Assembly (NCBI RefSeq): GCF_031260295.1
Contig: NZ_JAIRKE010000052.1
Source: Azonexus sp.
Lineage (GTDB): Bacteria > Pseudomonadota > Gammaproteobacteria > Burkholderiales > Rhodocyclaceae
DNA length: 64,000 bases
Reading direction: 5' to 3' (one strand)
How positions within the stretch are numbered: the stretch's first letter is position 1; the number at the start of each line of letters is the position of its first letter. The translations under genes were made by a program, and so were the position numbers. The notes below the pieces were generated by a model. The model was not told the DNA's origin and searched no databases. It worked only from the letters and a program-made list of their open reading frames with translations. Of this stretch, positions 23,593 through 37,506 are shown piece by piece.

Positions 23593-24009
23593 CTAGCGTA
23601 GCCGGAAGCCCATGACGTTGCTCATCACATGCAGGTTCGGTTGTTTGTCCAGCCAATTGCGGGCGGTGCTCGGCGAATCGAACACGGCGATTTCGTAGGA
23701 AGCCATTTCCGGTGCCGTGAGGATGCGCTTGATCAGCTCGGCGAGGGTCGCGTCGGTGGTTACGAAAACAATCCGGCAGTTCGGGTGCGAGGCGTAAGCG
23801 CCGTAATGCAGGGCCGACAACTCGACGAAGGCCTCTTCGCTAAGCTCCCACCCGGCATCGTCCGGGAGTTTGTTGATGACGTAGTGTCTCTCGTCGAAGC
23901 GTCCATCGGCGTGCATCTGCCGCGCCGAATTGATGAGATCGCGGGCCGTGACGCGGCCGGAGAACGTCACCAAGACGCCTTCGGGTTCCCAGATGATCTC
24001 ATAGGGCAT
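23593..24009 (-). CDS. Hypothetical protein (138 aa)
   Basis: MPYEIIWEPEGVLVTFSGRVTARDLIN... No family recognised. Confidence 0.45.
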   Translation of the reverse strand: MPYEIIWEPEGVLVTFSGRVTARDLINSARQMHADGRFDERHYVINKLPDDAGWELSEEAFVELSALHYGAYASHPNCRIVFVTTDATLAELIKRILTAPEMASYEIAVFDSPSTARNWLDKQPNLHVMSNVMGFRLR

Positions 24010-24181
24010 ACAGATGTCTCATGATACGAGGTTGAACCAAACGGCCAAGAGCAGCGTATTGTCGCTCTTGATGGTTTTCATGCTACGCCAAAAGTAAGGG
24101 TTTGCGCATCCGGGACGAGTACGAGGCATGGCCAGTCGCACCGGTGTGTTGCCTAGATGCTCTCGATTCTGCAACGACCAC

Positions 24182-24781
24182 TCACAACTGCTTTTCTTCT
24201 TGCAGCCACTTGCCGACCGGCTCCGGCCGATAGCCGGCCATCGCCGCCAGTAGGCGCTCGTGGTTGGTGTCGGCCAGCACCATCGCCCGGTTCTGCGGGC
24301 GCAGAAAGCCATCGGCGACGGCGCGGTCGAACATCGCCAGCAAGGGATCGTAGAAGCCGTTTACGTTGAGCAGACCCATCGGTTTTACGTGAAACCCGAG
24401 TTGCCCCCAGGTCAGCACTTCGCAGAATTCCTCGAAGGTGCCGAAGCCACCGGGCAGGGCGATGAAACCGTCGGCCAGTTCGGCCATGCGCGCCTTGCGG
24501 GTATGCATCGAATCGACTACTTCCAGGCGGGTCAATGCCCGGTGGTCGACGTTACGGCCGGCCACCTCCTTGCCCATCAGCGCTTGCGGAATGATGCCGA
24601 TGACGGTACCGCCGGCTGCCAAGCAGGCATCGGCAATGATGCCCATCAGGCCGATGTTGCCGCCGCCATAGACCAGTTCGATACCGTGCTCAGCGAGCAG
24701 GTGGCCGAGACGCTCGGCTTCGCCGCGGTAGAGGGGATGCTTGCCGGCATTGGAACCGCAAAAGACGCAGAGTCGTTTCAT
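24182..24781 (-). CDS. LOG-family (TIGR00730) cytokinin-riboside-5'-monophosphate phosphoribohydrolase-like protein
   Basis: GGGNIGLMG and PGGFGTFEEFCEV motifs. Confidence 0.9.
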   Translation of the reverse strand: MKRLCVFCGSNAGKHPLYRGEAERLGHLLAEHGIELVYGGGNIGLMGIIADACLAAGGTVIGIIPQALMGKEVAGRNVDHRALTRLEVVDSMHTRKARMAELADGFIALPGGFGTFEEFCEVLTWGQLGFHVKPMGLLNVNGFYDPLLAMFDRAVADGFLRPQNRAMVLADTNHERLLAAMAGYRPEPVGKWLQEEKQL

Positions 24782-25692
24782 GATGGGCTAGGGGCGGAAA
24801 GGTGTAGGACGACGGTTTCCGGCGGGCAGTTGAAGCGGAGGGGGAGAATGCTGGTGCCGACGCCGACGGTAACGAAGGTCGGTACCGGTGCATCGGGAAT
24901 CCAGCCGCCAGCGTGCCGGCGCGGCGAGCGACCGGGCGTGATAAGCGCGCCGATGAAGGGCAGGCGGACCTGGCCGCCGTGCGTGTGACCGGCGAAGGCG
25001 ACCAGGGCGCGGGCGGGCAAGTCCGGGGCGTTGGCCGGGTCGTGCATCATGACGATCAGTGGCGCGGCTGCGGGAACCTGGGCGAAAGCTTGATCGGGCC
25101 GGGCGTGGCCGGTCATGTCGTCGCCGATGCCGACCAGCCACAGCGAGCCGGCGGCGGTCGGCAGCGCCACGGCAGCATTTTCCAGAACCGTGATGCCGAC
25201 CTTCTGCAAAGCTTGCCGTACCTGCTCGCCGTCATATCCCCAATCGTGGTTGCCGAGCGTTGCATAGACGCCGAGCGGTGCCTTGAGGCGGGCGAGTTCA
25301 CCGGCGATGGCGGCCGGTTCGATCGTCTCGCCGCCGGGCACGCCCCGGGTCATGAAGTCGCCGGGTAACAGGATCAGGTCGGGCTGGCTGGCATTCAACT
25401 GGTCGACGACACGACGCAGCATCGGCAATCCGGCGTGCGGCGAACCGACGTGCAGGTCGGCGGCCACGGCGATGGTCAGGGGCGGGCCGGACCAAGCCGG
25501 CGCGGTCAAGGTCAGTTCGCGCTGCTGCAACCAGCCCGGCTCGAAGCCAACGCTCCAGACGGCCAGACAGAGGATGGTCAGCCGGACAATCCAGCGCAGG
25601 CGTTTCATGCGCCGCTCAAAAACCACCCGCTTCCCGCCAGCGTTCGATTCGCGGCAGGCGGTCGGCGTCGAAGAAGGCTTCACCTTGAACAC
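24778..25692 (-). CDS. Membrane-anchored calcineurin-like metallophosphoesterase
   Basis: N-terminal TM helix. AVAADLHVG, GDF and LGNHDWG metallophosphatase motifs. Confidence 0.85.
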   Translation of the reverse strand: MFKVKPSSTPTACRESNAGGKRVVFERRMKRLRWIVRLTILCLAVWSVGFEPGWLQQRELTLTAPAWSGPPLTIAVAADLHVGSPHAGLPMLRRVVDQLNASQPDLILLPGDFMTRGVPGGETIEPAAIAGELARLKAPLGVYATLGNHDWGYDGEQVRQALQKVGITVLENAAVALPTAAGSLWLVGIGDDMTGHARPDQAFAQVPAAAPLIVMMHDPANAPDLPARALVAFAGHTHGGQVRLPFIGALITPGRSPRRHAGGWIPDAPVPTFVTVGVGTSILPLRFNCPPETVVLHLSAPSPS

Positions 25693-28600
25693 TCAGTTGT
25701 CCGGCAAGACTTTTTCCAGTCTTTTCAGGGTTTCGTTCATGCGTTTAACATTTTCCCAGATGCTGTGATCCAGCTTCAGCTTGTGGTAATTGGCGGAAAT
25801 CAGCGGTGACAGGACGTTGTTATATAGCTGCTTCATCTCCTGGAGGCTCTCGCCAAATGCCTTGGTATCCGGCGCGGCAATGGCGATATTGGGCTGGACG
25901 TCGATCCGGGGTTCCAGGCTGCCCACGGTTTTTATCAGCGAAGCCAGTCCCTTTTTCAGGATTTGCGTGGTTTCCGACTGGGTGCGCAGTTCGTCGACAG
26001 CGCGCGAGATGTCGAGCAGGGTGTTGGCGATGCGCTGGCTGCCGTCGGCATCGTCGCCGCCCAATTTTTTTCGGCGCACGAATTCTTCGCGAATTTCCCG
26101 CCAGCGCGCCTGTTCTTCTTTGTTGAGGCTGCCGAGCAGTTCGGCGAGCTTCAACAGGTTCTCTTCCGCGCCCGTGGTGAGCGTCTGCGCTTCGCCGCGG
26201 TAATGATCGCGCAGGAGCGCATCCAGTTCGCCCTCGTCCATCAGCGGGGTGATGCGGGCGGCGAGCTTGGTCATATTACGGTAGCTGCCTTGCAGCCTGA
26301 ACGGGGGTTCAACGCGATAGGCGTCCTGTTGCGCGGCGGATTCGATGTAGGCGAGGTTAACTTTCAGCAGCAGGTCGCGGGCGCGGAAGAGCCGTTGCAT
26401 GAGAGCAACCAGTTCGTTGAGTTCGGCGGTGCTGTAACCATGCGCAAATTCGCTGCCGGCAATCGACTCGCCTTCCGCCATGCGCACGAGCAGATGCACG
26501 TCCTTGGGATCGCGTGAAGACAGCGGCAGCAGCACAGGATTGGCGGTGAGGCTGTTTTCGATGTAGGAAAGGGCGAATAGTGCCTCGCGCCCGGAGAGAA
26601 CGTCGCCGAGGTTGTAGATGTCGGCGCGGTTGGCGAGCATGTCGGGAATCTTGAAGACGTCGCCGGACTCGGTGTAGGGGTTGCCGGCCATGACGATGGC
26701 AAAACGCTTGCCGCGCAGGTCGCACGTGGTCGGCTCGCCGTTTCGCGTCGCCTCGATGCGGCGGGTGCCGTCGGCCAGGGCGATGAATTTTTGCAGGAAC
26801 TCGGGGTTGGTGTGCTGGATGTCGTCGAGATAGAGCATGACGTTGTTGCCCATCAGCAAGCCGAGGTTGAGCTTTTCGAGTTCCTGGCGCGCGGCGCTGT
26901 TGGGCGCGGTCGTTGGGTCGAGCGCGGTGATGCCGTGGCCCAGCGCCGGGCAGTTGATGCGGACAAAGATCATGCCGAGGCGGTCGGCGACGTATTCCAT
27001 CAGGGTCGTCTTGCCGTAACCCGGCGGGGAGATCAGGAGCAGCATGCCCATGCGGTCGCTCCGGCTGGCATCGCCGGTGGCGCCGATCTGCTTGGCAAGG
27101 TTGTCGCCGACAATGGGCAGGTAGAGTTCGTCGATCAGGCGGTTGCGCACGAAGGACGACAGCGGCTTGGCCTGAAACTGTTCGAGGTGCAGCCGCCGTT
27201 TTTCGGCTTCGAGAATGCGGTGGCGCACGGCTTGCAGTTCGGAGAAGCCGGTGGCGACGACTTCGGCGTGGTGCAGGTAACGACGCCAGAAATCGTGCAG
27301 GTTGAGGGCAATGGCGCCATCATGGATGTGCGGGTGCTCGCCCAGCAGGTTTTGCAGGGAGGTATCGAGGTCGGCGTTGACCCGCTCGCGTGGAATGTCG
27401 AGGGCGAAGCGCGTTGCGGCGTCGTCGGCCCAAATCGCCAGCTGCGGCTGGCTGGCGGTGGCGGCAAGCATCCAGTCCCGCGCCAGCCGCCAACGCTCAC
27501 CCGGCGCGGCAGCAGCAAGGTCGCGCTGCCAGGTGGCGAGCAGGCCGCTGCTTTCGAGTTTTCTTTGCAGGTCGTTGGCCAGATCGTCGGCAGCGGCGGC
27601 GATTAGCCAGCGTTCGTCGGTGTGCGAGGAGGCCAGTTGGCGAACCAGGTAGCGGGCGGCCTGGCGCCCGAGCCCGTTGCGGCCCGCATCGAAGTCAAAA
27701 TCGGGGGCAAAAGCGATGATCTTCTCGGCCAGCGTTTGTTCGAGGCGCTTCTGGCTGGCGCGCGTACCGTACTGGGCACGGATGCCCATGGCCGCCTGGG
27801 CCTGACGGAAGAAGGCGGAACGCTCTTCATCGCGGCAGCCGACGTGCCAGTAAAGCATGGCCAGCGCGCGCGCATCCGGCCCGTAGGAGAGAAGCCCCGC
27901 CGCCGCCTGCATGGCGACGAGGGCAGCGAGAATGCGGGCGGCATCGGCGTCGTGCACGCCTTTCTGGTAGCCCTCCTGGTAGCGGGGGGCGGCCCAGATG
28001 CGCAGCTTCTCAAGCAGGGGTTCCTTGTTTTTGTCGGCGCACAAGGCTTGCAGGCTTCGCCAGTCGAGCGCGAGATCTCCGGTTTCGTCGGCAATGACCG
28101 CTTCCAGCAAGCTGCCGGCGAGGTATTCGGCGCGGTAGAAGTCGGGCGTTTCGGAAATCAGCAGTTGATCCCACTGGGCGCGGAAGGCTTCCAGTTCGGC
28201 ACTGTGCTGCGGCAAGAGTGGGGCATAGTAGTCGGTGCCGCTCAGGTGGTATTGCATCACGCCTTCGCGCGGCACCAGCGTCAGATCGAGCGCCTGACGG
28301 CTAATGGTGAAAGCATGCTTGCCGAAACGCAGGGTATTGCCATCGTCGGAGACGAGTTCGCTCTGATCGCGTACCGAGCGGATGGCCTGATCGCGCGCGG
28401 TCTTGAATTGGGTGTCGAGATCATCGGCGCCGACACCATCGCCGAGCGTGCGCAGGCTGGTAATCTGTTGGCGCAATTTGCCGATCAACGGATCGGAGGC
28501 GAAATAGCTGTGCAGTTGCGCAAGCTCGTTGAATTGCGCGACGCGGCGCGGGATGCCGGCGAGGATGCGGGCGGCGGCATCAACGATGGCGCGGGCGCGG

Positions 28601-30927
28601 CGGTTTCTGGCGTCAAGCAGGATCTGCCGCTTGGCGAGGATCGATTCATAGACGGTTTCGCGCTTGGCGGCGATGTCCGCGAGAAATTGCTCCTGCTCGG
28701 CAAAACGCCCCTCCAGTTCTTCCAGTTGGGTCAGGAGGCGCGTCAGGGCGTCGTCGCACTTTTCAGGCGTGTCCGCCAGTTCGATGGCGTTTTCGAGCGA
28801 CTGCCCGAACAGTTTGAATTGTGCGCCAAACTCGGCGGTGGATTCCGTCGCGGACAAGCTGCGCCGACGATTCCTCGCCTCGGCGCGCAAGCGGTTGATT
28901 TCGGCGTAAACGGCGGAGATGGTGTCGAGAATCCGGGTGCGCACGACCGCGTCGCCGCCGGGCAAATTGCCAACCTGCCCGGTCAATAAATCGAGCCCGG
29001 CGGCGGAAGCATCGAGTTCGGCGAGCATTTTGGCGATGTCTTCGCTCGTTGCTGCCTTGTCGAGCCGCTCTTCGACGCGGACAAGTTCCTGACGGGTGCC
29101 ATCGAACGCTTTTTCCTGCGACAGGAAGGCCAGCGCTTTTTCCCCCACGCGGTCACTCTCGGTCGCGTAAGCGGCATCGAGCGCGCTGATGCGCCCGGCG
29201 TCGGCATAGCGCATTTCCAACAGCAATTGCAGTTGCCCGCGCTCCCCGCGCAAACGATCGAGCGCATGCACGAAATCTTCCGGTCTCTTCCAGATCGTCC
29301 CCGTGATTTCGGAGAGCAATTCCTGCTGGCGGCCTTCGGCCTGGTCGGTCGCCTGACGCGCGGCGCGGCGGATGCTTTCGACCTTTTCAAATTCGTCGAG
29401 TGTGTTCCTTGCTTCCTCCACGATGCCGTGCAACTCGGCATCCATCGCTCCCGCTTCCACGGCATCGAGCCAGAAGAAGGCATCCAGCGCGTTATCGCAC
29501 TGGCGGATGATTCCCTCGTAAGCGACGCGGGTCGGCACCTGTTCGCGCACGGCGCGGGCGATAGCCGTCAGTTCGGCAATTCCCCTGACCAGCTCGGGAT
29601 TGCCGATGCGTCCCCAAAACCCTCTCGCCGCTTTGGCGCGAGTGACGTGGTCCTCGTCGAAGAAGGGGGTTTGCCAGAGTTGCATCGGGTGGGTACGGGT
29701 CGGGTCCGGATTGCCGCCCTGGAAGGTGAGGATGCGCCCGTCCTCGAAACGGGCATACCCGTGGCAAAGGATGGGCGGCGACAGGCTTCTTTCGATCAGG
29801 TTGTACGAAAAAAGCATGTATTGCCCGCCTTGCGGCTGGTAAAAGACGTAGAGCACGTCTTCGCCATTGGGCGAACGCAGCATGCGCTTGAAGCGCGACG
29901 TGGCGGCCAGCGCTTCGGGCAGGTCGAACGCCTTGGTTTCGCCCGACTGCAGGTAATAGCCGCCGGGAAAGATCAAGCCATGATCCTCCGGCAACTGCAC
30001 GCAGGACTGGCCGATGGCGTCGATCCGGGTCACGGTGTTGGTGCGGGCGTTGAAGACCAGGTAGCGATCATGTTTTTCCCGGTAGGGGCGCACCTTCAGA
30101 AGGATCAGGGTGCCGAGCCGCGCATAGGCGATTTCCGCATCGGCAAGCGCCTGATTCTTGTCCTCGACCGGCTCGGAATAAATGCCGAGGCCCGTCTCGG
30201 TATTGTTCTCGACCTTGACCGTCAGATCGCCGTGTATGGTTTCGACGAATACGGTGTCCAGAATGTTGATATGCGGATGGCGCCCGCCAACGTGCTGATC
30301 GCGCGTACAAAGCGTCCATTCGAAATCGTGCGTGGACGGCAGGGCCATTTCGCGTTCGCCGCGATTGTCGATGTATTGGAGGCTGCCGTCGTTTTTCAGG
30401 GACCAGCGGAACACCCGCTGGTCGGTCAACTTTTCGCCGATCTGAAAAGCCGCGAAAAGCTTGTGCTGATGCACGCGCAATTGCGTGAGGTTTGCCTGCT
30501 TGTAATAGGCGTAAAGCTCGCGGAAATCGGCGACGAAGCGGGGATCGTCAAGAAAGGTTCCGGCCAGCGGCACGGGTTCCAGTTCCTCGACGCTCTCCGC
30601 GTTTTCCTGCAAGCGGTAGAGCGAAAACACGTCGTCGACCGCCGTTTCCTTGCGCAGACCGATGAAGACGTTGTAGCCGAACAGGAGCAGGTCGCCGCCG
30701 ATGCGGGTCAGGTCGCGGGCCACGCAATTGTTTTCGGTACGGGCGCGCGTGCGCAGGATCAGCGATTGTGTAGCGCGGCCGAATTCGGCAATCCGCGCTT
30801 CGTTCAAGCCTTGCGTTTTCTCAAGCAGCCGATCGCCCCGATCGGCGAGGCGTTTTTTCAGGAGTTCGTAACTGCCGCTCTCGGCAACAAGGGATTCGGT
30901 GGCGTCGATTTCGGGGATGTTGGCCAT
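25693..30927 (-). CDS. Giant (1744-aa) AAA+ ATPase-containing protein of unknown function
   Basis: One continuous ORF with an ATG at 30927. A single P-loop module sits at roughly residues 1250-1450 (Walker A LLISPPGYGKTTL, Walker B VMLYLDDIQHTNPEF, AAA_5/MoxR-like). The ~1200 N-terminal residues and ~300 C-terminal residues are largely helical or coiled-coil with no recognisable domain. It is co-oriented with the flotillin, NfeD and PspA genes. Confidence 0.8.
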   Translation of the reverse strand: MANIPEIDATESLVAESGSYELLKKRLADRGDRLLEKTQGLNEARIAEFGRATQSLILRTRARTENNCVARDLTRIGGDLLLFGYNVFIGLRKETAVDDVFSLYRLQENAESVEELEPVPLAGTFLDDPRFVADFRELYAYYKQANLTQLRVHQHKLFAAFQIGEKLTDQRVFRWSLKNDGSLQYIDNRGEREMALPSTHDFEWTLCTRDQHVGGRHPHINILDTVFVETIHGDLTVKVENNTETGLGIYSEPVEDKNQALADAEIAYARLGTLILLKVRPYREKHDRYLVFNARTNTVTRIDAIGQSCVQLPEDHGLIFPGGYYLQSGETKAFDLPEALAATSRFKRMLRSPNGEDVLYVFYQPQGGQYMLFSYNLIERSLSPPILCHGYARFEDGRILTFQGGNPDPTRTHPMQLWQTPFFDEDHVTRAKAARGFWGRIGNPELVRGIAELTAIARAVREQVPTRVAYEGIIRQCDNALDAFFWLDAVEAGAMDAELHGIVEEARNTLDEFEKVESIRRAARQATDQAEGRQQELLSEITGTIWKRPEDFVHALDRLRGERGQLQLLLEMRYADAGRISALDAAYATESDRVGEKALAFLSQEKAFDGTRQELVRVEERLDKAATSEDIAKMLAELDASAAGLDLLTGQVGNLPGGDAVVRTRILDTISAVYAEINRLRAEARNRRRSLSATESTAEFGAQFKLFGQSLENAIELADTPEKCDDALTRLLTQLEELEGRFAEQEQFLADIAAKRETVYESILAKRQILLDARNRRARAIVDAAARILAGIPRRVAQFNELAQLHSYFASDPLIGKLRQQITSLRTLGDGVGADDLDTQFKTARDQAIRSVRDQSELVSDDGNTLRFGKHAFTISRQALDLTLVPREGVMQYHLSGTDYYAPLLPQHSAELEAFRAQWDQLLISETPDFYRAEYLAGSLLEAVIADETGDLALDWRSLQALCADKNKEPLLEKLRIWAAPRYQEGYQKGVHDADAARILAALVAMQAAAGLLSYGPDARALAMLYWHVGCRDEERSAFFRQAQAAMGIRAQYGTRASQKRLEQTLAEKIIAFAPDFDFDAGRNGLGRQAARYLVRQLASSHTDERWLIAAAADDLANDLQRKLESSGLLATWQRDLAAAAPGERWRLARDWMLAATASQPQLAIWADDAATRFALDIPRERVNADLDTSLQNLLGEHPHIHDGAIALNLHDFWRRYLHHAEVVATGFSELQAVRHRILEAEKRRLHLEQFQAKPLSSFVRNRLIDELYLPIVGDNLAKQIGATGDASRSDRMGMLLLISPPGYGKTTLMEYVADRLGMIFVRINCPALGHGITALDPTTAPNSAARQELEKLNLGLLMGNNVMLYLDDIQHTNPEFLQKFIALADGTRRIEATRNGEPTTCDLRGKRFAIVMAGNPYTESGDVFKIPDMLANRADIYNLGDVLSGREALFALSYIENSLTANPVLLPLSSRDPKDVHLLVRMAEGESIAGSEFAHGYSTAELNELVALMQRLFRARDLLLKVNLAYIESAAQQDAYRVEPPFRLQGSYRNMTKLAARITPLMDEGELDALLRDHYRGEAQTLTTGAEENLLKLAELLGSLNKEEQARWREIREEFVRRKKLGGDDADGSQRIANTLLDISRAVDELRTQSETTQILKKGLASLIKTVGSLEPRIDVQPNIAIAAPDTKAFGESLQEMKQLYNNVLSPLISANYHKLKLDHSIWENVKRMNETLKRLEKVLPDN

Positions 30928-31142
30928 GACATGAATTTCCGGGTTCTGGATGTGTCGGACGGATCAGTGCTTCACGGGGAAACCCAAAAGGTCCCGCCGA
31001 AAAAGGGAATTGCATTTGACTCCCTCCCCCGCGAGGGGGGGAGGGTTGGGGTGGGGGGCATTCAGCGGCACTCGCCCCCATTCCGACCTTCCCCCGCCAA
31101 GCGGAGGAAGGAGCAAAACCGTCTTCGCGGTGGAGCCTTTCC

Positions 31143-33281
31143 TTATTTCTTCCCGAATTCATCCATCAGCGTTTTCAGCGCCGCCTTCTGTTCGGTGCTG
31201 CCTTCCTGCGCCACCTTGTTCACCAGCGCGGCGATGGAGAGGTTCTGCACGCTGCCGGAGGCGTTGCCCAGCGCGCCCAGCAGATCCTTGACATCTTCCA
31301 CCAGATCGCGCTGCCCGTTCAGGCGGTCGCGCAGGCCGACCTTCAGCGTGTTGCTCTTGCTGATGGCGCCGTCGATGCCCTTGCCAACCGCCAGCGCACT
31401 GACGAAACGCTCGAAGTAATCGCCTTCGCCGCCGACGATGTCGATGTTGGCTTTGCCCATCGCCGTGCCAAGCACTTCCGCCTGTTCGCGAGCGATGCTG
31501 CTTTGCGCTTCGATGGCTTTCAGGGTCTCGGTATGGGTGCGTTCGAGCTGCATGCGGAATTCCTCATGGGCGCGGGTTTCCGCGCTCATGGCCTTCATCG
31601 CATCGAATTTTTCTTTGAGACCCTTGGCTTCCGCAGCGAAGCGGAGCGCGATAACGTCCGCCTCGGCCTGACCGACGCTGGCGATGGCCTCTCCCTCCGC
31701 GGCGCGCACTTTCACCTCGGCCATGCCCTGTTTCTCCGTGGCCTCCGCGGTAGCCTGGCCAACGCTCGAAATGGCCTGCGCCTCCGCTGTGCGCACATTC
31801 ACCTGTGCCATGCCCTGTTTTTCCGAAGCTTCGGCATCGGCGATTTTCACCTTGGCATCGATCATGCCCTGCTTCTCCTTGGCATCCGCAGTAACCAACA
31901 ATACCTTGGCCTGGGCGAGGCCCGGCGCGGCGGCAATGGCTTCCATCCCTTCGGCTTCGCGCTTTTTCGCTTCCGCCGCCTTTTCGGCGACCTTCAACCT
32001 GGCTTCGGCCAGCGTCAGTTCCTCGGCGGCCTTGAACTGGGCGCGGCGCTCGGCGGCCTCGGCTTCCTTGACGTCCTTGATGAGCTTTTCCTCCGCCGCG
32101 CCTTCGGCGGTGATGACGACGGATTTCTTGATCCGGTCGGCCTCGGCGACGACGCGCACTTCCTTGATCGCCTCTTCCTGCTCGGCCACCGTGCGCTCGA
32201 CGATGACGCGCTCACGGATCACATCGGCAATCGCCTTCTTCTGGATTTCGACGGCGCGTTCCTTGTCGATTGCTTGCAGGGTGACTTCCTTCTCGCGGTC
32301 GACGATTTCCAGTTGCCGGGCGCGGGTGACCTTTTCCTCTTCCACCGCCACGACGCGCTTGCGGTTGTTTTCCGCCACTTCCTTCTCGCGGGCGACGTTT
32401 TCCATCTGCACGGCAATGAGCTGTTCGGCTTGCAGGCGCGCCAGTTCCGCCTTGGCATGCTCCTCCGATTCGATGCGGTGGGCTTCGGCTTCCTCGCGCG
32501 CCTTCACCGAGGCGATTTCGCGCTGCTGCTTGAATTCGGCATCGGCTTGTTGACGCTCAAGCTCAAGAATCGCCTCGCGCGTTTCGACATTCTTTTTCGT
32601 GATCTGCATTTCTTCGTTGCGCTTGTATTCATTGGTGCGCACGTTTTCATACGTCGTGAGTTCGGTAATTTTCTTGATCCCCTGCGCATCGAGGATGTTG
32701 TTCTTGTCGAGCATGGAGAGCGGCGTCTGCTCCAGGTAATCGATGGCGACATCGACCAACTCGTAGCCGGAAAGATCCTTGCCGATCTGCCTGACGATCT
32801 TGTCGCGGAAATCGTCGCGCTCCTGGTAAAGCTGGACAAAATCCATCAACTTGCCGACGGTTTTCAAGGCTTCCGAGAACTTGGCGGAGAACAGTTCCTC
32901 CAATGTTTCCTTGTTGGAAGCGCGCGCGCAGCCGATACCCTGCGCCACTTTCAGCACATCCTCGGTGGTCTTGTTGACCTGCACGAAGAAGGTCACCTTG
33001 ATGTCGGCCCGGATGTTGTCCCGGCAGATCAGGCCATCCTTGCCGGTTCGCGCGATTTCGATGGTCTTGCGGGCGATGTCCATCATCTCCGCCTTGTGGA
33101 TGATCGGATACACCATGCGCCCGGTGAAAGTGACATCCGGCTCGCTTCGGGTCGTATTGACGATCATGGCGTATCCCTGCTCGACCTTGCGGTAGAACTT
33201 CGAAAACAGCGCGAACAGGCCGAAGATGAAGATGGCGATAATGCCGACTGCAACGGCCATGACGATCAGGCTGGATCCCAT
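31143..33281 (-). CDS. Flotillin / SPFH (band-7) family protein (YqiK-like) with a long coiled-coil C-terminus
   Basis: N-terminal TM helix. SPFH domain (GYAMIVNTTRSEPDVTFTGRMVYPIIHKAEMMD...). An extended Ala/Glu/Lys-rich repetitive coiled-coil follows. 712 aa. Confidence 0.9.
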   Translation of the reverse strand: MGSSLIVMAVAVGIIAIFIFGLFALFSKFYRKVEQGYAMIVNTTRSEPDVTFTGRMVYPIIHKAEMMDIARKTIEIARTGKDGLICRDNIRADIKVTFFVQVNKTTEDVLKVAQGIGCARASNKETLEELFSAKFSEALKTVGKLMDFVQLYQERDDFRDKIVRQIGKDLSGYELVDVAIDYLEQTPLSMLDKNNILDAQGIKKITELTTYENVRTNEYKRNEEMQITKKNVETREAILELERQQADAEFKQQREIASVKAREEAEAHRIESEEHAKAELARLQAEQLIAVQMENVAREKEVAENNRKRVVAVEEEKVTRARQLEIVDREKEVTLQAIDKERAVEIQKKAIADVIRERVIVERTVAEQEEAIKEVRVVAEADRIKKSVVITAEGAAEEKLIKDVKEAEAAERRAQFKAAEELTLAEARLKVAEKAAEAKKREAEGMEAIAAAPGLAQAKVLLVTADAKEKQGMIDAKVKIADAEASEKQGMAQVNVRTAEAQAISSVGQATAEATEKQGMAEVKVRAAEGEAIASVGQAEADVIALRFAAEAKGLKEKFDAMKAMSAETRAHEEFRMQLERTHTETLKAIEAQSSIAREQAEVLGTAMGKANIDIVGGEGDYFERFVSALAVGKGIDGAISKSNTLKVGLRDRLNGQRDLVEDVKDLLGALGNASGSVQNLSIAALVNKVAQEGSTEQKAALKTLMDEFGKK

Positions 33282-33354
33282 TTCATTTCCTTTTCAAATA
33301 AACGGGTGGAAAGCTACAAATGACGCCATCCCGCGTTCGCGGGAAGCTGTTGTT

Positions 33355-34017
33355 TTAAAACGAACTTTTTTCCGCAATGCGGTAGATCCCAGCTGCCTCA
33401 TCGTATTCCATGATGCAGGCCGTATCGCCGCGCTTCAGATTGTTGGGCGTATCCGCGATGACGTGGATGTGATACCCCGCGCCACGCGCCGCGACCTCGG
33501 CGCGACCGAATTTTTCATCGACGGAACCGCTCAGCACCACGCATTCCTGACCGACCAGGGAAACGTTGGAAATGGCGTTGTGCGTGACGAAAAGCCGGCG
33601 CATCGGGCGCACGCAGGTCGCCGTGGCGGGAATGGCCAGCGCGAGGGCGCCGCCGAGCACGGCGGTGCCGACGACGAAACGCAACAGGCCATCCGGAAAA
33701 AAGGCAAGCGCCCAGATTGCCGCAATGCTGCTGATGACCCAGGCAAACAGCGTGAGTAGGCTGATCACCACCGAAAACGGCACGCCGCCCAAACCGAGCG
33801 CGACGAGATAAGCGGCCAGCGTGCTGACATTCGCCGGTTCGCCCAAGTCAATATCGGTTACCGATGTTCCCGGCTCCAGGTCGATATCCAGATCCGGCCC
33901 GCCGCTCTCGAAATCCACGAGACCAACGATGGCGAGCAACCAATACACCAGCCCCACGCCGAGAAGGGCCGTGTAGATGATGGTCGGGTAACTCAGGATG
34001 ACTTCAAAGAAGTCCAT
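33355..34017 (-). CDS. NfeD/YqiJ-like membrane protein (flotillin partner)
   Basis: Multi-TM N-terminal half with a C-terminal OB-fold-like soluble domain (ECVVLSGSVDEKFGRAEVAARGAGYHIHV). Gene order matches yqiJ-yqiK, consistent with an NfeD-flotillin pair. Confidence 0.7.
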   Translation of the reverse strand: MDFFEVILSYPTIIYTALLGVGLVYWLLAIVGLVDFESGGPDLDIDLEPGTSVTDIDLGEPANVSTLAAYLVALGLGGVPFSVVISLLTLFAWVISSIAAIWALAFFPDGLLRFVVGTAVLGGALALAIPATATCVRPMRRLFVTHNAISNVSLVGQECVVLSGSVDEKFGRAEVAARGAGYHIHVIADTPNNLKRGDTACIMEYDEAAGIYRIAEKSSF

Positions 34018-34062
34018 GACGCTTCCTTTTTCTTAACGAAAAATCCGTGGCTGGCGAGGGGC

Positions 34063-34392
34063 TCATGCACCGTTCTGCTGCCTGGCAAAATCAATCAGAT
34101 CCTGCGTGACGCGCTCCTTGATCGCCAGACGGTCCGTGGCGAGAAGCCCGTAGCGCTTCGCCAGCGCTTCGTAGTCTTCCGGCGCCAGGGTGACGGTGAG
34201 CCGGGGCCGCTTGGGATGGCGGTTGACCGCCAGACCCAGAAAGCTGCGGATCTGGTCGGAGTTCGAGAGATTGTTCTCGAACGCGGCCTGGCGCACCGCC
34301 TCCAGCACGGCGGCCTCGACGTCGAACGCGACCTGCACCGCATGCAGGGCCGCATCCGAGCTTTGCCAACGCGCGGGTTTTCGTGCCGTCAT
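34063..34392 (-). CDS. Small hypothetical protein (109 aa), translationally coupled to the pspA-like gene
   Basis: Its start overlaps the PspA-family stop by 4 nt (ATGA). Helical; possible RHH-like or regulatory partner. No firm family assignment. Confidence 0.5.
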   Translation of the reverse strand: MTARKPARWQSSDAALHAVQVAFDVEAAVLEAVRQAAFENNLSNSDQIRSFLGLAVNRHPKRPRLTVTLAPEDYEALAKRYGLLATDRLAIKERVTQDLIDFARQQNGA

Positions 34393-35090
34393 GCCTTGTC
34401 CGCTGCCGCGCGGGCGCGGATGCGCTCCATCACCTTTGCCTTGCGCTGCGCGTCATCGCCAATGCCCGCTGCCGCCAGCTTCGCTTCCAGCGCCTTGGTG
34501 CCGAATTCCTTGTCCAGCGCCTCGGAGGCGGTCATCCGGTCGGCCTGATCCTCGTGGCGCTTCTTGATGCGCTCCAGCGATTCCTTGGCGCTCATCAGCT
34601 TCGAGCCGGAGGAGCCGATGCTCTCGGAAATCGTCTGGGTCGCCTTGTAGACGCTCTCGGTGGTCTTGGCCATCTGCACTTCGCGCTCATGCTCGCGAAT
34701 CCGGGCCTCGGAAGCCTTGATGAGATCTTTCAGCCGATTGGCATGCAGCGCGTAGTCGGCATGCAGTTGCGTTTGCTTTTCCAGCTCGGCCTCTTGCTCC
34801 GCGACCTTGGCCGCCACCTCTTCAGCCAGATCTTCCTTGCTCTTCTCCAGGGCTTCGAGCGCCAGGTTCTCCAGCCGAGCGATTTCCGCGCGCGCCCGTT
34901 CGATTTCCCGCGCGCTTTGCATTTCCTTGGCCATGACACCCGTCAGATCCGTTTTCGCCTTGGTAATTGCCTCGTGCGCGTCGCGGATTTCCTGCTCGTA
35001 GATGCGCACGCCATTGGCGTCGACAATGCTCTCGCCCAACTCGCGGGCGCTGCCCTTGATGAGGGTGGCGATTTTTCCAATCACGCTCAT
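34389..35090 (-). CDS. PspA/IM30 (Vipp1) family protein (YjfJ-like), ESCRT-III superfamily
   Basis: Typical ~230-aa all-helical IM30 protein (MSVIGKIATLIKGSARELGESIVDANGVRIYEQEIRDA...). Confidence 0.9.
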   Translation of the reverse strand: MSVIGKIATLIKGSARELGESIVDANGVRIYEQEIRDAHEAITKAKTDLTGVMAKEMQSAREIERARAEIARLENLALEALEKSKEDLAEEVAAKVAEQEAELEKQTQLHADYALHANRLKDLIKASEARIREHEREVQMAKTTESVYKATQTISESIGSSGSKLMSAKESLERIKKRHEDQADRMTASEALDKEFGTKALEAKLAAAGIGDDAQRKAKVMERIRARAAADKA

Positions 35091-35125
35091 GATGATGCTC
35101 CTTTCAAAATCCGTTCAACGGATGG

Positions 35126-35542
35126 TCAGTTCAGGTATTCCGCCAGCGCCTCCAGTGCATCGAGGGCGTTGTCGCTCAAGGCCACGATGTCGTCCGCGAT
35201 GGCCTCGCGCCTGGCGTTGGCGGACAGCGCGCCGAACAGCACGTGGCACCCTTCCACCCGGCCGAAGGAGGAAAGCGGTATCGCCGGATTCAAATCCAGC
35301 ATCAGTTCGAGCAATTCCAGCCGCTTTTCGGGGCGAATTTCCGCATCCCGCCAGAGATAACAGATGCACAGGATCTGATCGGGTGACGCGGTAATGAAGA
35401 TTGGCAACTCCTCGCGCCCGCCGATCACTACCTGCACGACCGGCACCTCCCCGGGGATCGGCTGCAAGCTGACAGGCACGTCGAACAAGCGCGCCTCAAG
35501 CAGGGCATCCAGACCTTCGAGCCGTTTTTGTAAGGACTGCAT
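35126..35542 (-). CDS. YjfI-like protein (DUF2170)
   Basis: ~138 aa, start MQSLQKRLEGLD. The position upstream of the yjfJ-like pspA gene mirrors E. coli yjfI-yjfJ. The family call rests on context plus weak sequence recollection. Confidence 0.5.
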   Translation of the reverse strand: MQSLQKRLEGLDALLEARLFDVPVSLQPIPGEVPVVQVVIGGREELPIFITASPDQILCICYLWRDAEIRPEKRLELLELMLDLNPAIPLSSFGRVEGCHVLFGALSANARREAIADDIVALSDNALDALEALAEYLN

Positions 35543-35695
35543 TTTTTGCTTCCTCGCATGAAAAAGATTGGTAGAGATGGTGCACCGTGAATATAGGCAC
35601 GGCGACATAAGATGTCAAGACATATTATGTCGCCGTGAAAAATCGCGGATGGATACGTTATGGCCGGACCAACCCGGCGGCCGCCGGGCGGGGCT

Positions 35696-36832
35696 TTACT
35701 CGCTGGCGATGGTGCGGCCGATCACCAGGCGCTGGATGTCGTTGGCGCCTTCGTAGATCTGGCTGATACGCACGTCGCGGTAGATGCGCTCGACCGGGAA
35801 GTCGCTGGTGTAGCCGACGCCGCCGTGGATCTGGATGGCGTCGGAAGCAATCTTCTCGGCGGCTTCCGAGGCGAACATCTTGGCCATCGAGGCTTCCTTC
35901 AGGCAGGGCTTGCCTGCGTCCTTCAGGGTCGCGGCACGCCAGACCAGCAGCCGGGCGGCGTCGAGCAGCGTGTTCATGTCGGCGAGGCGGAAATTGACTG
36001 CCTGATGCTCGATGATCGGTACGCCGAAGGTCACGCGCTCCTTGGCGTAGCGCACGGCGGCCTCGAACGCGGCGCGGGCCATGCCGATGCTCTGCGCGGC
36101 GATGCCGATGCGCCCGGCTTCGAGGTTGGACAGCGCGATCTTGTAACCCTCGCCTTCCTTGCCGAGCAGTGCCGAGGCCGGCACGCGGCAGTTCTCGAAA
36201 ATGATTTGCACGGTGTCGGAAGCATGCTGACCCATCTTGTCCTCGGTGCGGCCGACGATGAAGCCCGGCGTGGCGGTCGGGATCAGGAAGCAGGAGATGC
36301 CTTTCTTGCCGGCGGCCTTGTCGGTGACGGCGAAAACGATGGCCATGTGGGCGTGCTTGCCGGTGGTGATGAATTGCTTGACGCCGTTGAGCACGAAACC
36401 GTCGCCGTCGCGGTCGGCGCGGGTGGTGATGGCGGCGGCGTCGGAGCCGGTGTGCGGTTCGGTCAGGCAGAAGCAGCCGAGCTTCTCGCCGCGGGCCAGC
36501 GGCTTCAGCCATTCTTCCTTCTGCTGGTCAGTGCCATATTTCTGCGTGATGCCGCAGGCCAGCGAGTTCTGCACCGAAACGATGGTCGAGGTGGCGCCGT
36601 CGCCGGCGGCGATTTCCTCAATCGTCAGGACCAGCGACATGTAATCCATGCCAGCGCCGCCCCACTCTTCGGGCACGCACATGCCCATGGCGCCGAGTTC
36701 GCCGAGTTCTTTCAAGGCCTCGGCCGGAAAGGTGTGGTGCTTGTCCCATTCAGCGGCGAAGGGCGCCAGACGCTCCTGAGCGAAAGCGCGCATCGAGTCG
36801 CGGATCATTTCCTGTTCTTGCGTGAGAATCAT
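35696..36832 (-). CDS. Acyl-CoA dehydrogenase (short/medium-chain type)
   Basis: 378 aa. N-terminal alpha domain, FAD-binding beta-barrel and C-terminal catalytic helices with ...[12 protein letters not shown]... It matches the butyryl-CoA dehydrogenase type. Confidence 0.9.
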
Positions 36833-36873
36833 GAGGTTTCTCCTGAGTAATAGCTTTCAAAAATGTGGCTGGG

Positions 36874-37233
36874 TCAAGCTTGACTCATGTGCTCCAGCCA
36901 GGCTTTCAATACCAGCGGATGGCAATGTCCCTGATCGTGCGCGGCATAGAGCAAGGTGATTTGTTCATGGCCTTTCATGCGTGCCATGAATTCCTGAGTA
37001 GCGGTTCCCGCTTGGAGTTCCGCCGTGTATTTTTCGGCAAAGGATTTCCATAGCGCCGGGTCGTGGCCAAACCATTTTCTGAGCGCGCCGGATGGCGCAA
37101 GATCTTTGTTCCATTCATCCAGTGCGGCGGCGTCTTTGGTAACACCGCGTGGCCACAGACGATCGACCAGCACACGATAACCATCGCTTGCCGCTGGTTT
37201 TTCGTAAATCCGTTTCAGTGCGATCTTCGTCAT
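36874..37233 (-). CDS. DUF488 (YeaO-like) family protein
   Basis: KRIYEKPAASDGYRVLVDRLWPRGVTKDAAALDEWNKDLAPS is collinear with E. coli YeaO. Confidence 0.8.
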   Translation of the reverse strand: MTKIALKRIYEKPAASDGYRVLVDRLWPRGVTKDAAALDEWNKDLAPSGALRKWFGHDPALWKSFAEKYTAELQAGTATQEFMARMKGHEQITLLYAAHDQGHCHPLVLKAWLEHMSQA

Positions 37234-37506
37234 GGCTTGGCTGAATTTGATGCCGCTCTGGTCGATGTCGGCGCGGCAAGTTCTACAAATTCTTCGCCCT
37301 CACGGCTTCACGAATTTCAGGACGAACTGATCCGTCTTGCCGCGACGAAAAGCATTTGAGATGCGCGCATGGAAGGTTTCCTTCGCAAAAGACAGGCTAT
37401 CAGCGGGCCAGGCCGCCGGGGCCGCGTTGCCGATGACCCGGCGACATTTTCTGTGTTTTTGGAATGCCGCCGATCATCGAACTGGCACATCCGGCGCCGG
37501 AGGAAA

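Follow-up and report, generated by a model that had tools for sequence, protein, structure and literature searches.

What kind of system is encoded by six consecutive genes that bring two families of membrane scaffold proteins together with a giant ATPase? The question was raised by the initial annotation of a 64,000-nucleotide stretch of Azonexus sp. DNA (contig NZ_JAIRKE010000052.1), referred to here as the window. In this stretch, genes for a YjfI-like protein, a PspA/IM30 protein, a small open reading frame (ORF), an NfeD-like membrane protein, a flotillin and a AAA+ ATPase follow one another on the same strand and in the same direction (25693-35542; Table 1). The initial annotation did not recognize the arrangement as a described system, but this was wrong: the operon class was defined by Ravi et al. 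(2024, mSystems, PMC11237479), and the bac cluster of Pseudomonas aeruginosa has been studied since 2008. The Azonexus locus is likely to be a copy of this known membrane-maintenance operon, for which a working model is given below, and does not represent a new kind of system.

All of the gene identities assigned in the initial annotation were upheld, by Pfam for YjfI, PspA and the ATPase and by other routes for the flotillin and the NfeD-like protein. YjfI matched the Pfam family DUF2170 (E = 5.1e-27), is related to E. coli YjfI, and matched PDB entry 8q8o, a 'DUF2170 family protein' (E = 1.1e-7), which is presumably the crystal structure of BacA. The PspA protein matched Pfam PspA_IM30 (E = 1.4e-32) and was 30% identical to E. 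coli YjfJ over its full length (E = 3e-23).

Neither the flotillin nor the NfeD-like protein had a Pfam match even at an E value of 10, NCBIfam gave nothing useful for either, and PDB sequence and profile searches with the two proteins gave nothing significant. A profile of 21 flotillin homologues aligned with E. coli YqiK in hhalign (probability 99.7, E = 5.6e-27, 389 columns), and the alignment spanned the N-terminal transmembrane (TM) helix, the SPFH domain and part of the coiled coil. The flotillin also shared 45% identity (E = 1e-161) with an SPFH protein encoded on plasmid pQBR103 that itself scores above the Pfam threshold for Band_7. Weak matches to the Pfam family Flot were found in eight of the 21 homologues, and the source names of the homologues were 'flotillin family protein' or 'YqiK'. 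For the NfeD-like protein, hhalign comparison of its profile with E. coli YqiJ was negative, with no detectable sequence similarity. The predicted model of this protein matched the solved domain of B. subtilis YuaF and, as modelled, it is a membrane protein of the YqiJ/YuaF (NfeD-like) type with three TM helices. Several of its homologues are named 'ubiquinone biosynthesis protein' in the databases and one is named 'co-chaperonin GroES'; these names look unfounded.

Conservation of the gene linkage was examined at 80 loci with relatives of the ATPase (54-89% identity) from species-representative genomes, all of them Betaproteobacteria. The window proteins were mapped onto these loci, and each count is given over the loci with enough upstream sequence. 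In 68 of 69 loci, a flotillin gene lay upstream of the ATPase gene in the same orientation, so homologues of the ATPase do not occur mostly away from flotillin and PspA genes. The NfeD-like gene preceded the flotillin gene in every one of these loci (68 of 68). In the single exception to the flotillin/NfeD rule (L001), no flotillin was encoded within 8.3 kb upstream of the ATPase. The full colinear set, yjfI-pspA-small ORF-nfeD-flotillin-ATPase, was present in 56 of 65 loci, and yjfI, pspA and the small ORF were jointly missing from eight of the 65. The linkage of the six genes is not due to chance. NfeD, flotillin and the ATPase are the invariant core of the operon, and yjfI, pspA and the small ORF are an optional upstream module.

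A translated search of plasmid records identified 13 more distant homologues of the ATPase (40-49% identity) from Pseudomonas, Proteus, Halomonas, Vibrio, Photobacterium, Streptomyces, Nonomuraea, Deinococcus and Hymenobacter. Four of the distant loci, on plasmids or chromids, were examined, and in all four a small membrane protein and a protein of the size of an SPFH protein or flotillin were encoded directly 5' of the ATPase. The order in Hymenobacter was CesT_Tir-PspA-DUF1449-722 aa flotillin-like-ATPase, and the Streptomyces and Deinococcus loci contained the NfeD-SPFH-ATPase triad alone, with no adjoining PspA. With the core found in four other phyla or classes, the physical and probably functional link between the ATPase, flotillin and PspA to which the initial annotation had drawn attention stands.

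In the Pseudomonas megaplasmid pQBR103 (L081, NC_009444.1, 84437-97641), a string of ten genes joins both known YjfI-PspA contexts. It encodes YjfI, PspA, a rhomboid protein, DUF2491, DUF350 and DUF1190 proteins, a glutathionylspermidine-synthase-like protein, an NfeD-like protein, an SPFH protein and the ATPase. A polyamine-type YjfI-PspA operon is here fused in series with the NfeD-SPFH-ATPase triad.

The operon class defined by Ravi et al. (PMC11237479) consists of CesT/Tir(YjfI)-PspA together with YqiJ/NfeD, flotillin and a giant AAA+ ATPase; abbreviated operons without PspA are also reported there, and chaperone-like and remodelling roles are proposed. All five component types were present in the Azonexus operon, and the PspA-less version was seen among its relatives. 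The paper also reports a phospholipase D gene in some Proteobacteria, which is missing from the Azonexus operon. For this operon class, the available portion mentions neither a palindromic operator nor a small ribbon-helix-helix (RHH)-like gene that separates pspA from the gene of YqiJ type, though an RHH gene is reported in another YjfI-PspA operon class.

The closest studied counterpart is the P. aeruginosa cluster bacABCDEF (PA3732-PA3727; Mace 2008, Wallart 2024). Its products include PA3732, a 16 kDa DUF2170 protein for which a crystal structure has been solved, the PspA-like PA3731, the 23 kDa TM protein PA3730 and the 76 kDa protein PA3729. Reverse transcription polymerase chain reaction (RT-PCR) gave products across every junction of the cluster, and in a mutant of bacA the levels of BacB-F rose 6- to 13-fold (PMC2587700, PMC10948618). 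The homologues in P. aeruginosa are co-transcribed and co-regulated (PMC10948618) rather than independently regulated. Osmotic shock induces PA3731, a gene required for biofilm formation and virulence (PMC2587700). The gene order is the same as in Azonexus: BacA (DUF2170), BacB, BacC (the TM protein), BacD (the 76 kDa protein) and the large 'DNA repair' ATPase BacE, and the sizes of the bac proteins fit those of the 138-, 233-, 220- and 712-aa Azonexus proteins. Between its bacB- and bacC-like genes, Azonexus encodes a protein of 109 aa, a small ORF that the bac cluster lacks at this position.

The giant ATPase contained DUF3686 at residues 34-485 (Pfam E = 9.1e-190), DUF7902 at residues 606-690 (E = 1.2e-23) and a single P-loop AAA module at about residues 1293-1423 (Pfam). 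DUF3686 is reported to have a beta-propeller fold (PMC11237479). A metagenome-assembled genome (MAG) of Azonexus sp. encodes a protein 100% identical to the giant ATPase, and at least 5967 homologues were found, which are named 'DNA repair ATPase' or 'MoxR-like ATPase' in the databases. The ATPase did not match any unrelated characterised family with confidence. Walker A, Walker B, the sensor-1 Asn and the candidate Arg finger showed little or no variation among 12 homologues. Walker B has the form hhhhDD rather than hhhhDE (D1368-D1369, codons at 26821-26826), and the DD pair was invariant in the 12 homologues. The best neighbours in a fold comparison of the AAA+ module were NorQ/CbbQ, of the MoxR group, and ClpB-D2; Vps4 was not among the best matches. 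Pfam AAA matched only the first 35 of 131 positions, i.e. the P-loop segment, the match to Pfam AAA_5 was below threshold (19.7 versus 22 bits), and PDB sequence and profile searches gave P-loop-level matches only. A Pfam scan of the ATPase found no MIT domain. The AAA+ module is probably MoxR-like rather than Vps4-like because the MIT domain is lacking and the Pfam AAA match is limited to the P-loop.

These features bear on an analogy with Vps4 that had been drawn in the initial annotation. Taken as a rival explanation, it would make the giant protein chiefly a Vps4-like disassembly motor for PspA polymers and the flotillin only an accessory. In the ESCRT-III/Vps4 systems of archaea and eukaryotes, likewise, the gene for an ESCRT-III-superfamily polymer stands beside that for a AAA+ ATPase, which makes remodelling driven by ATP a natural hypothesis for the operon. 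However, the constant partners of the ATPase were NfeD and flotillin rather than PspA. The ATPase was encoded without an adjoining pspA in the eight betaproteobacterial loci that lack the upstream module and in Streptomyces and Deinococcus, and without flotillin and NfeD only in L001. The Azonexus ATPase, with its MoxR-like module and no MIT domain, does not belong to the classical clade, is about four times larger than Vps4, carries DUF3686 as an N-terminal domain, and follows flotillin and not PspA in the operon. A motor dedicated mainly to PspA is therefore unlikely.

It is still less probable that the operon is an anti-phage defence module that senses perturbation of the membrane during infection, an alternative that had been offered in the initial annotation. 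PA3728-PA3732 are up-regulated upon infection of P. aeruginosa by two virulent phages (PMC12041424), and the cassette was found on plasmids and in variable genomic neighbourhoods. Induction by phage is, however, classic Psp stress behaviour and no proof of defence, and the phenotypes known for bac relate to osmotic stress, biofilms and virulence. A PADLOC 2.0 search with eight proteins matched no defence model (E ≤ 0.001) and gave the alternative no support, and the operon proteins contained no nuclease, toxin or abortive-infection effector domain.

The least credible explanation is the one carried by the database name, namely that the giant protein functions as an ATPase in DNA repair and only happens to be encoded beside membrane genes. 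The Pfam description of DUF3686 reads 'ATPase involved in DNA repair', the NCBI name is 'DNA repair ATPase', PA14_16190 is annotated in the terms of the same Pfam description (PMC8855297), and there were weak P-loop-level matches to RuvB, but these scored 17-18 bits (cut-offs 27 to 299) and were confined to some 45 residues at the P-loop, no nuclease, helicase or DNA-binding domain was found in the protein, its gene is tied to those of NfeD and flotillin across several phyla, and a literature search for 'DUF3686' found no paper mentioning the name.

The layout of the locus, including the positions of the six genes, their gaps, the 4-nt overlap and the G/C-rich hairpin, was reproduced as initially annotated (Table 1). 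From yjfI to the ATPase, the gaps are 35, -4 (an ATGA overlap), 45, 73 and 215 bp. The longest ORF for yjfI reaches 35608; the start that gives the 138-aa protein fits both the Pfam match and the NCBI gene model. An Rfam scan of 24000-37500, which included the hairpin of the spacer, found no family. The short gaps, the overlap and one strong predicted promoter suggest that the six genes are probably a single transcription unit.

Table 1. Coordinates of the operon genes and associated features in the Azonexus window
Feature	Position	Strand	Description
Giant ATPase gene, 1744 aa, bacE-like	25693-30927	minus	DUF3686, DUF7902, helical regions, one AAA+ module
AAA+ alpha/beta core, about residues 1285-1445	26593-27075	minus	Walker A PPGYGKTT, Walker B LYLDDIQH, sensor-1 Asn1416, Arg1434
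Flotillin-ATPase spacer, 215 bp, G/C-rich hairpin	30928-31142	minus	Minimum free energy -94.9 kcal/mol, z -2.45
Flotillin/SPFH gene, YqiK type, 712 aa, bacD-like	31143-33281	minus	N-terminal TM, SPFH domain, long coiled coil
NfeD/YqiJ-like gene, 220 aa, bacC-like	33355-34017	minus	Three TM helices and C-terminal OB-like beta domain (as modelled)
Small ORF, 109 aa, conserved	34063-34392	minus	4-nt overlap with pspA stop
pspA/yjfJ/bacB-like gene, 233 aa	34389-35090	minus	PspA/IM30, ESCRT-III superfamily
yjfI/bacA-like gene, 138 aa	35126-35542	minus	DUF2170, CesT/Tir-like chaperone fold
Predicted sigma-70-type promoter upstream of yjfI	35590-35618	minus	TTGACA, 17-nt spacer, TATATT; 11/12 consensus positions
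Two 13-bp palindromes GACAT-N3-ATGTC, putative operator	35604-35631	no strand	15 bp centre to centre

A metallophosphoesterase ORF starts right after the stop codon of the ATPase gene and is overlapped by 4 nt by a gene of the LOG/SLOG family (24182-25692, minus strand), and these two genes may share the ATPase transcript in the window. Extension of the operon to include them was considered and dropped; neither was kept beside the ATPase in any of the 80 loci. The acyl-CoA dehydrogenase gene upstream of the operon was likewise conserved at none of the related loci. The flanking genes were placed outside the unit because they are conserved beside the ATPase in no related locus.

The predicted promoter and the two palindromes upstream of yjfI were conserved together with the upstream module. 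The promoter-proximal palindrome overlaps the -35 element and the spacer, and the second copy lies 15 bp further upstream. The same -35 element, with a -10-like CTAnnnT at equal spacing, was found in 57 upstream regions, that of the window included. In the 64-kb window there were only two matches to GACAT-N3-ATGTC, both of them upstream of yjfI, where 0.05 were expected. A palindrome was present upstream of yjfI in all 56 related loci with sequence there, and there was no other site in their 1.26 Mb. It was missing from loci without the yjfI-pspA-small ORF module.

The small ORF is a real gene. Its product, labelled 'hypothetical protein' by NCBI, was 59-77% identical across the 56 loci with yjfI and pspA and was missing wherever those were missing. 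An exhaustive HMMER search of 1.84 billion representatives found 118 clusters (at 50% identity) of this family. In some family members of 330-580 aa (P0439, P0448, P0476), the 109-aa module is the C-terminal domain, and they also have an N-terminal domain that is conserved and rich in beta structure and a long linker rich in Pro, Ala and Lys; the members of this length had no Pfam match. The window protein itself had no RHH match at E ≤ 0.01, and Pfam and NCBIfam searches at an E value of 10 gave nothing useful. Weak matches to Pfam RHH families were obtained for six of 62 family members: NikA-like (best E = 7.7e-6), RHH_1, FitA-like and RHH_10. In addition, the N- and C-terminal halves of the 109-aa protein aligned with each other in RHH register (E = 0.013), and each half, read by eye, looks like one RHH unit, in which a strand and a helix are followed by a G-x-S/T-x-S/D turn and another helix. 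A PDB profile search with the family gave nothing significant (NikA, E = 0.49). The 109-aa protein is probably an RHH-like DNA-binding protein and a candidate autoregulator of the operon. Autorepression is suggested by the combination of a conserved palindrome over the -35 element with a small RHH-like protein. The small regulator gene and its putative operator seem to be undescribed, no mention of them having been found in the available portions of the literature on this operon class.

The best PDB match of the 109-aa family profile, which was not significant, was to the MIT domain of Vps4 (E = 0.42) and involved the C-terminal half of the protein (34063-34240). This match has no statistical weight, is at odds with the RHH reading and was not used.

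The working model builds on the gene identities and linkage described above, and its mechanistic steps are what we infer from them. A single sigma-70-type promoter upstream of yjfI would transcribe the whole operon, and the 109-aa RHH-like protein would probably bind GACAT-N3-ATGTC over the -35 element as an autorepressor. YjfI, a chaperone-like dimer, would hold or regulate the YjfJ-type PspA. Under envelope stress, PspA would form polymers on the inner membrane in the manner of other ESCRT-III-superfamily proteins, and the NfeD-like protein and flotillin would assemble there into an SPFH microdomain or cage. The giant ATPase may dock on these scaffolds through its N-terminal DUF3686 and its coiled-coil regions, and its single MoxR-like AAA+ module, presumably in a ring oligomer, would assemble, remodel or recycle them. 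The primary client of the ATPase would be flotillin/NfeD, with PspA a secondary one.

Its domains and neighbours suggest that the giant ATPase most likely remodels membrane scaffolds of flotillin and PspA. A remodeller centred on flotillin and NfeD is the most economical model because of the pattern of co-occurrence. The more specific proposal is tentative and less likely than not: that the DUF3686 ATPase is an ATP-driven remodeller of SPFH/flotillin-NfeD cages with PspA as an optional client, and that the betaproteobacterial unit is autoregulated by the small RHH-like protein at GACAT-N3-ATGTC. To our knowledge, no ATPase specific for SPFH scaffolds has been described, so this machine, if the proposal is true, would be the first of its kind.

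Several points weigh against the assignment of the Azonexus locus to the known operon and against the working model. The RT-PCR evidence for co-transcription comes from P. aeruginosa. BacC-F were likened to the Azonexus proteins by their published sizes and annotations together with the BacA/DUF2170 matches. The score of the Azonexus YjfI with the NCBIfam BacA model NF050185 was far below the cut-off (43.2 versus 300 bits), which places the two proteins in the same Pfam family but does not make them equivalogs. The bac cluster has an extra gene, bacF, that the Azonexus locus does not have. It also has a proposed sigma-54 site, whereas Azonexus has a predicted sigma-70-type promoter and operator; the sigma-54 consensus TGGCA-N6/7-TGC[AT] was absent from the 220 bp upstream in the window and 56 relatives. 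With Asp in place of the catalytic Glu in Walker B, the ATPase may work slowly or have a regulatory role. A VWA partner usually accompanies MoxR ATPases, and no VWA domain was found in the ORFs scanned (20.8-41 kb). Lastly, the RHH assignment of the 109-aa protein relies on weak matches, and the palindrome could be bound by another regulator.

Comparison with other systems showed which parts of the operon occur elsewhere. In E. coli, YjfI and YjfJ are homologous to the first two proteins and YqiK to the flotillin, and in yqiJ-yqiK an SPFH gene likewise comes after an NfeD-like one. However, the yjf and yqi pairs are unlinked, the yjfIJ(KLMC) operon contains polyamine-related genes, and there was no DUF3686 ATPase gene at the two loci inspected. 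In B. subtilis, PspA is reportedly tied in function to an SPFH protein and membrane anchors. The pspA-ydjGHI (samGHI) operon of this species links PspA with an SPFH protein as the Azonexus operon does, and in yuaF-floT the NfeD protein YuaF is encoded beside flotillin, like the Azonexus nfeD-flotillin pair. The B. subtilis system also has zinc-ribbon proteins, as do most of the betaproteobacterial relatives of the Azonexus operon. It differs in having neither a giant AAA+ ATPase nor a YjfI-type chaperone, and its SPFH protein YdjI is cytosolic. Compared with the MoxR systems NorQ/NorD and CbbQ/CbbO, the Azonexus operon has no VWA partner, Walker B ends in DD, and the module is embedded in a protein of 1744 aa. 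No families of the classical Psp regulon (PspF, PspB or PspC) were found among the operon genes and the neighbours scanned.

The operon class is widespread: its ATPase has homologues in Proteobacteria, Actinobacteria, Deinococcus and Bacteroidota as well as on plasmids, and in P. aeruginosa the class has been connected with biofilm formation and virulence. The largest protein of the class carries a misleading 'DNA repair' name for which no supporting evidence was found. The ATPase goes with NfeD and flotillin rather than with PspA, making flotillin dynamics the first place to look for its function. If it does remodel SPFH scaffolds, it would be a functional, non-homologous bacterial counterpart of Vps4. 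The betaproteobacterial device, consisting of the predicted sigma-70 promoter, the strictly conserved palindrome and the small RHH-like protein, could serve to switch the operon on for study.

In about 50 relatives, the interval between the flotillin and ATPase genes contained a gene for a double zinc-ribbon protein of about 185 aa (Zn_ribbon_TFIIB, PF13453; for example L019:9395-9940 and L071:9383-9946). This gene was missing from the window, which has the GC-rich hairpin spacer in its place, and from about 19 other loci. A remnant of it was sought in the 215-bp gap of the window and none was found; the only weak zinc-ribbon match in the window was spurious and lay inside a ribonucleotide reductase gene. 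In several Azoarcus/Zoogloeaceae MAGs from termite guts and in one Acidovorax MAG (L001, L003, L059, L062 and L077), an extra 2-5 kb of DNA separated the flotillin and ATPase genes.

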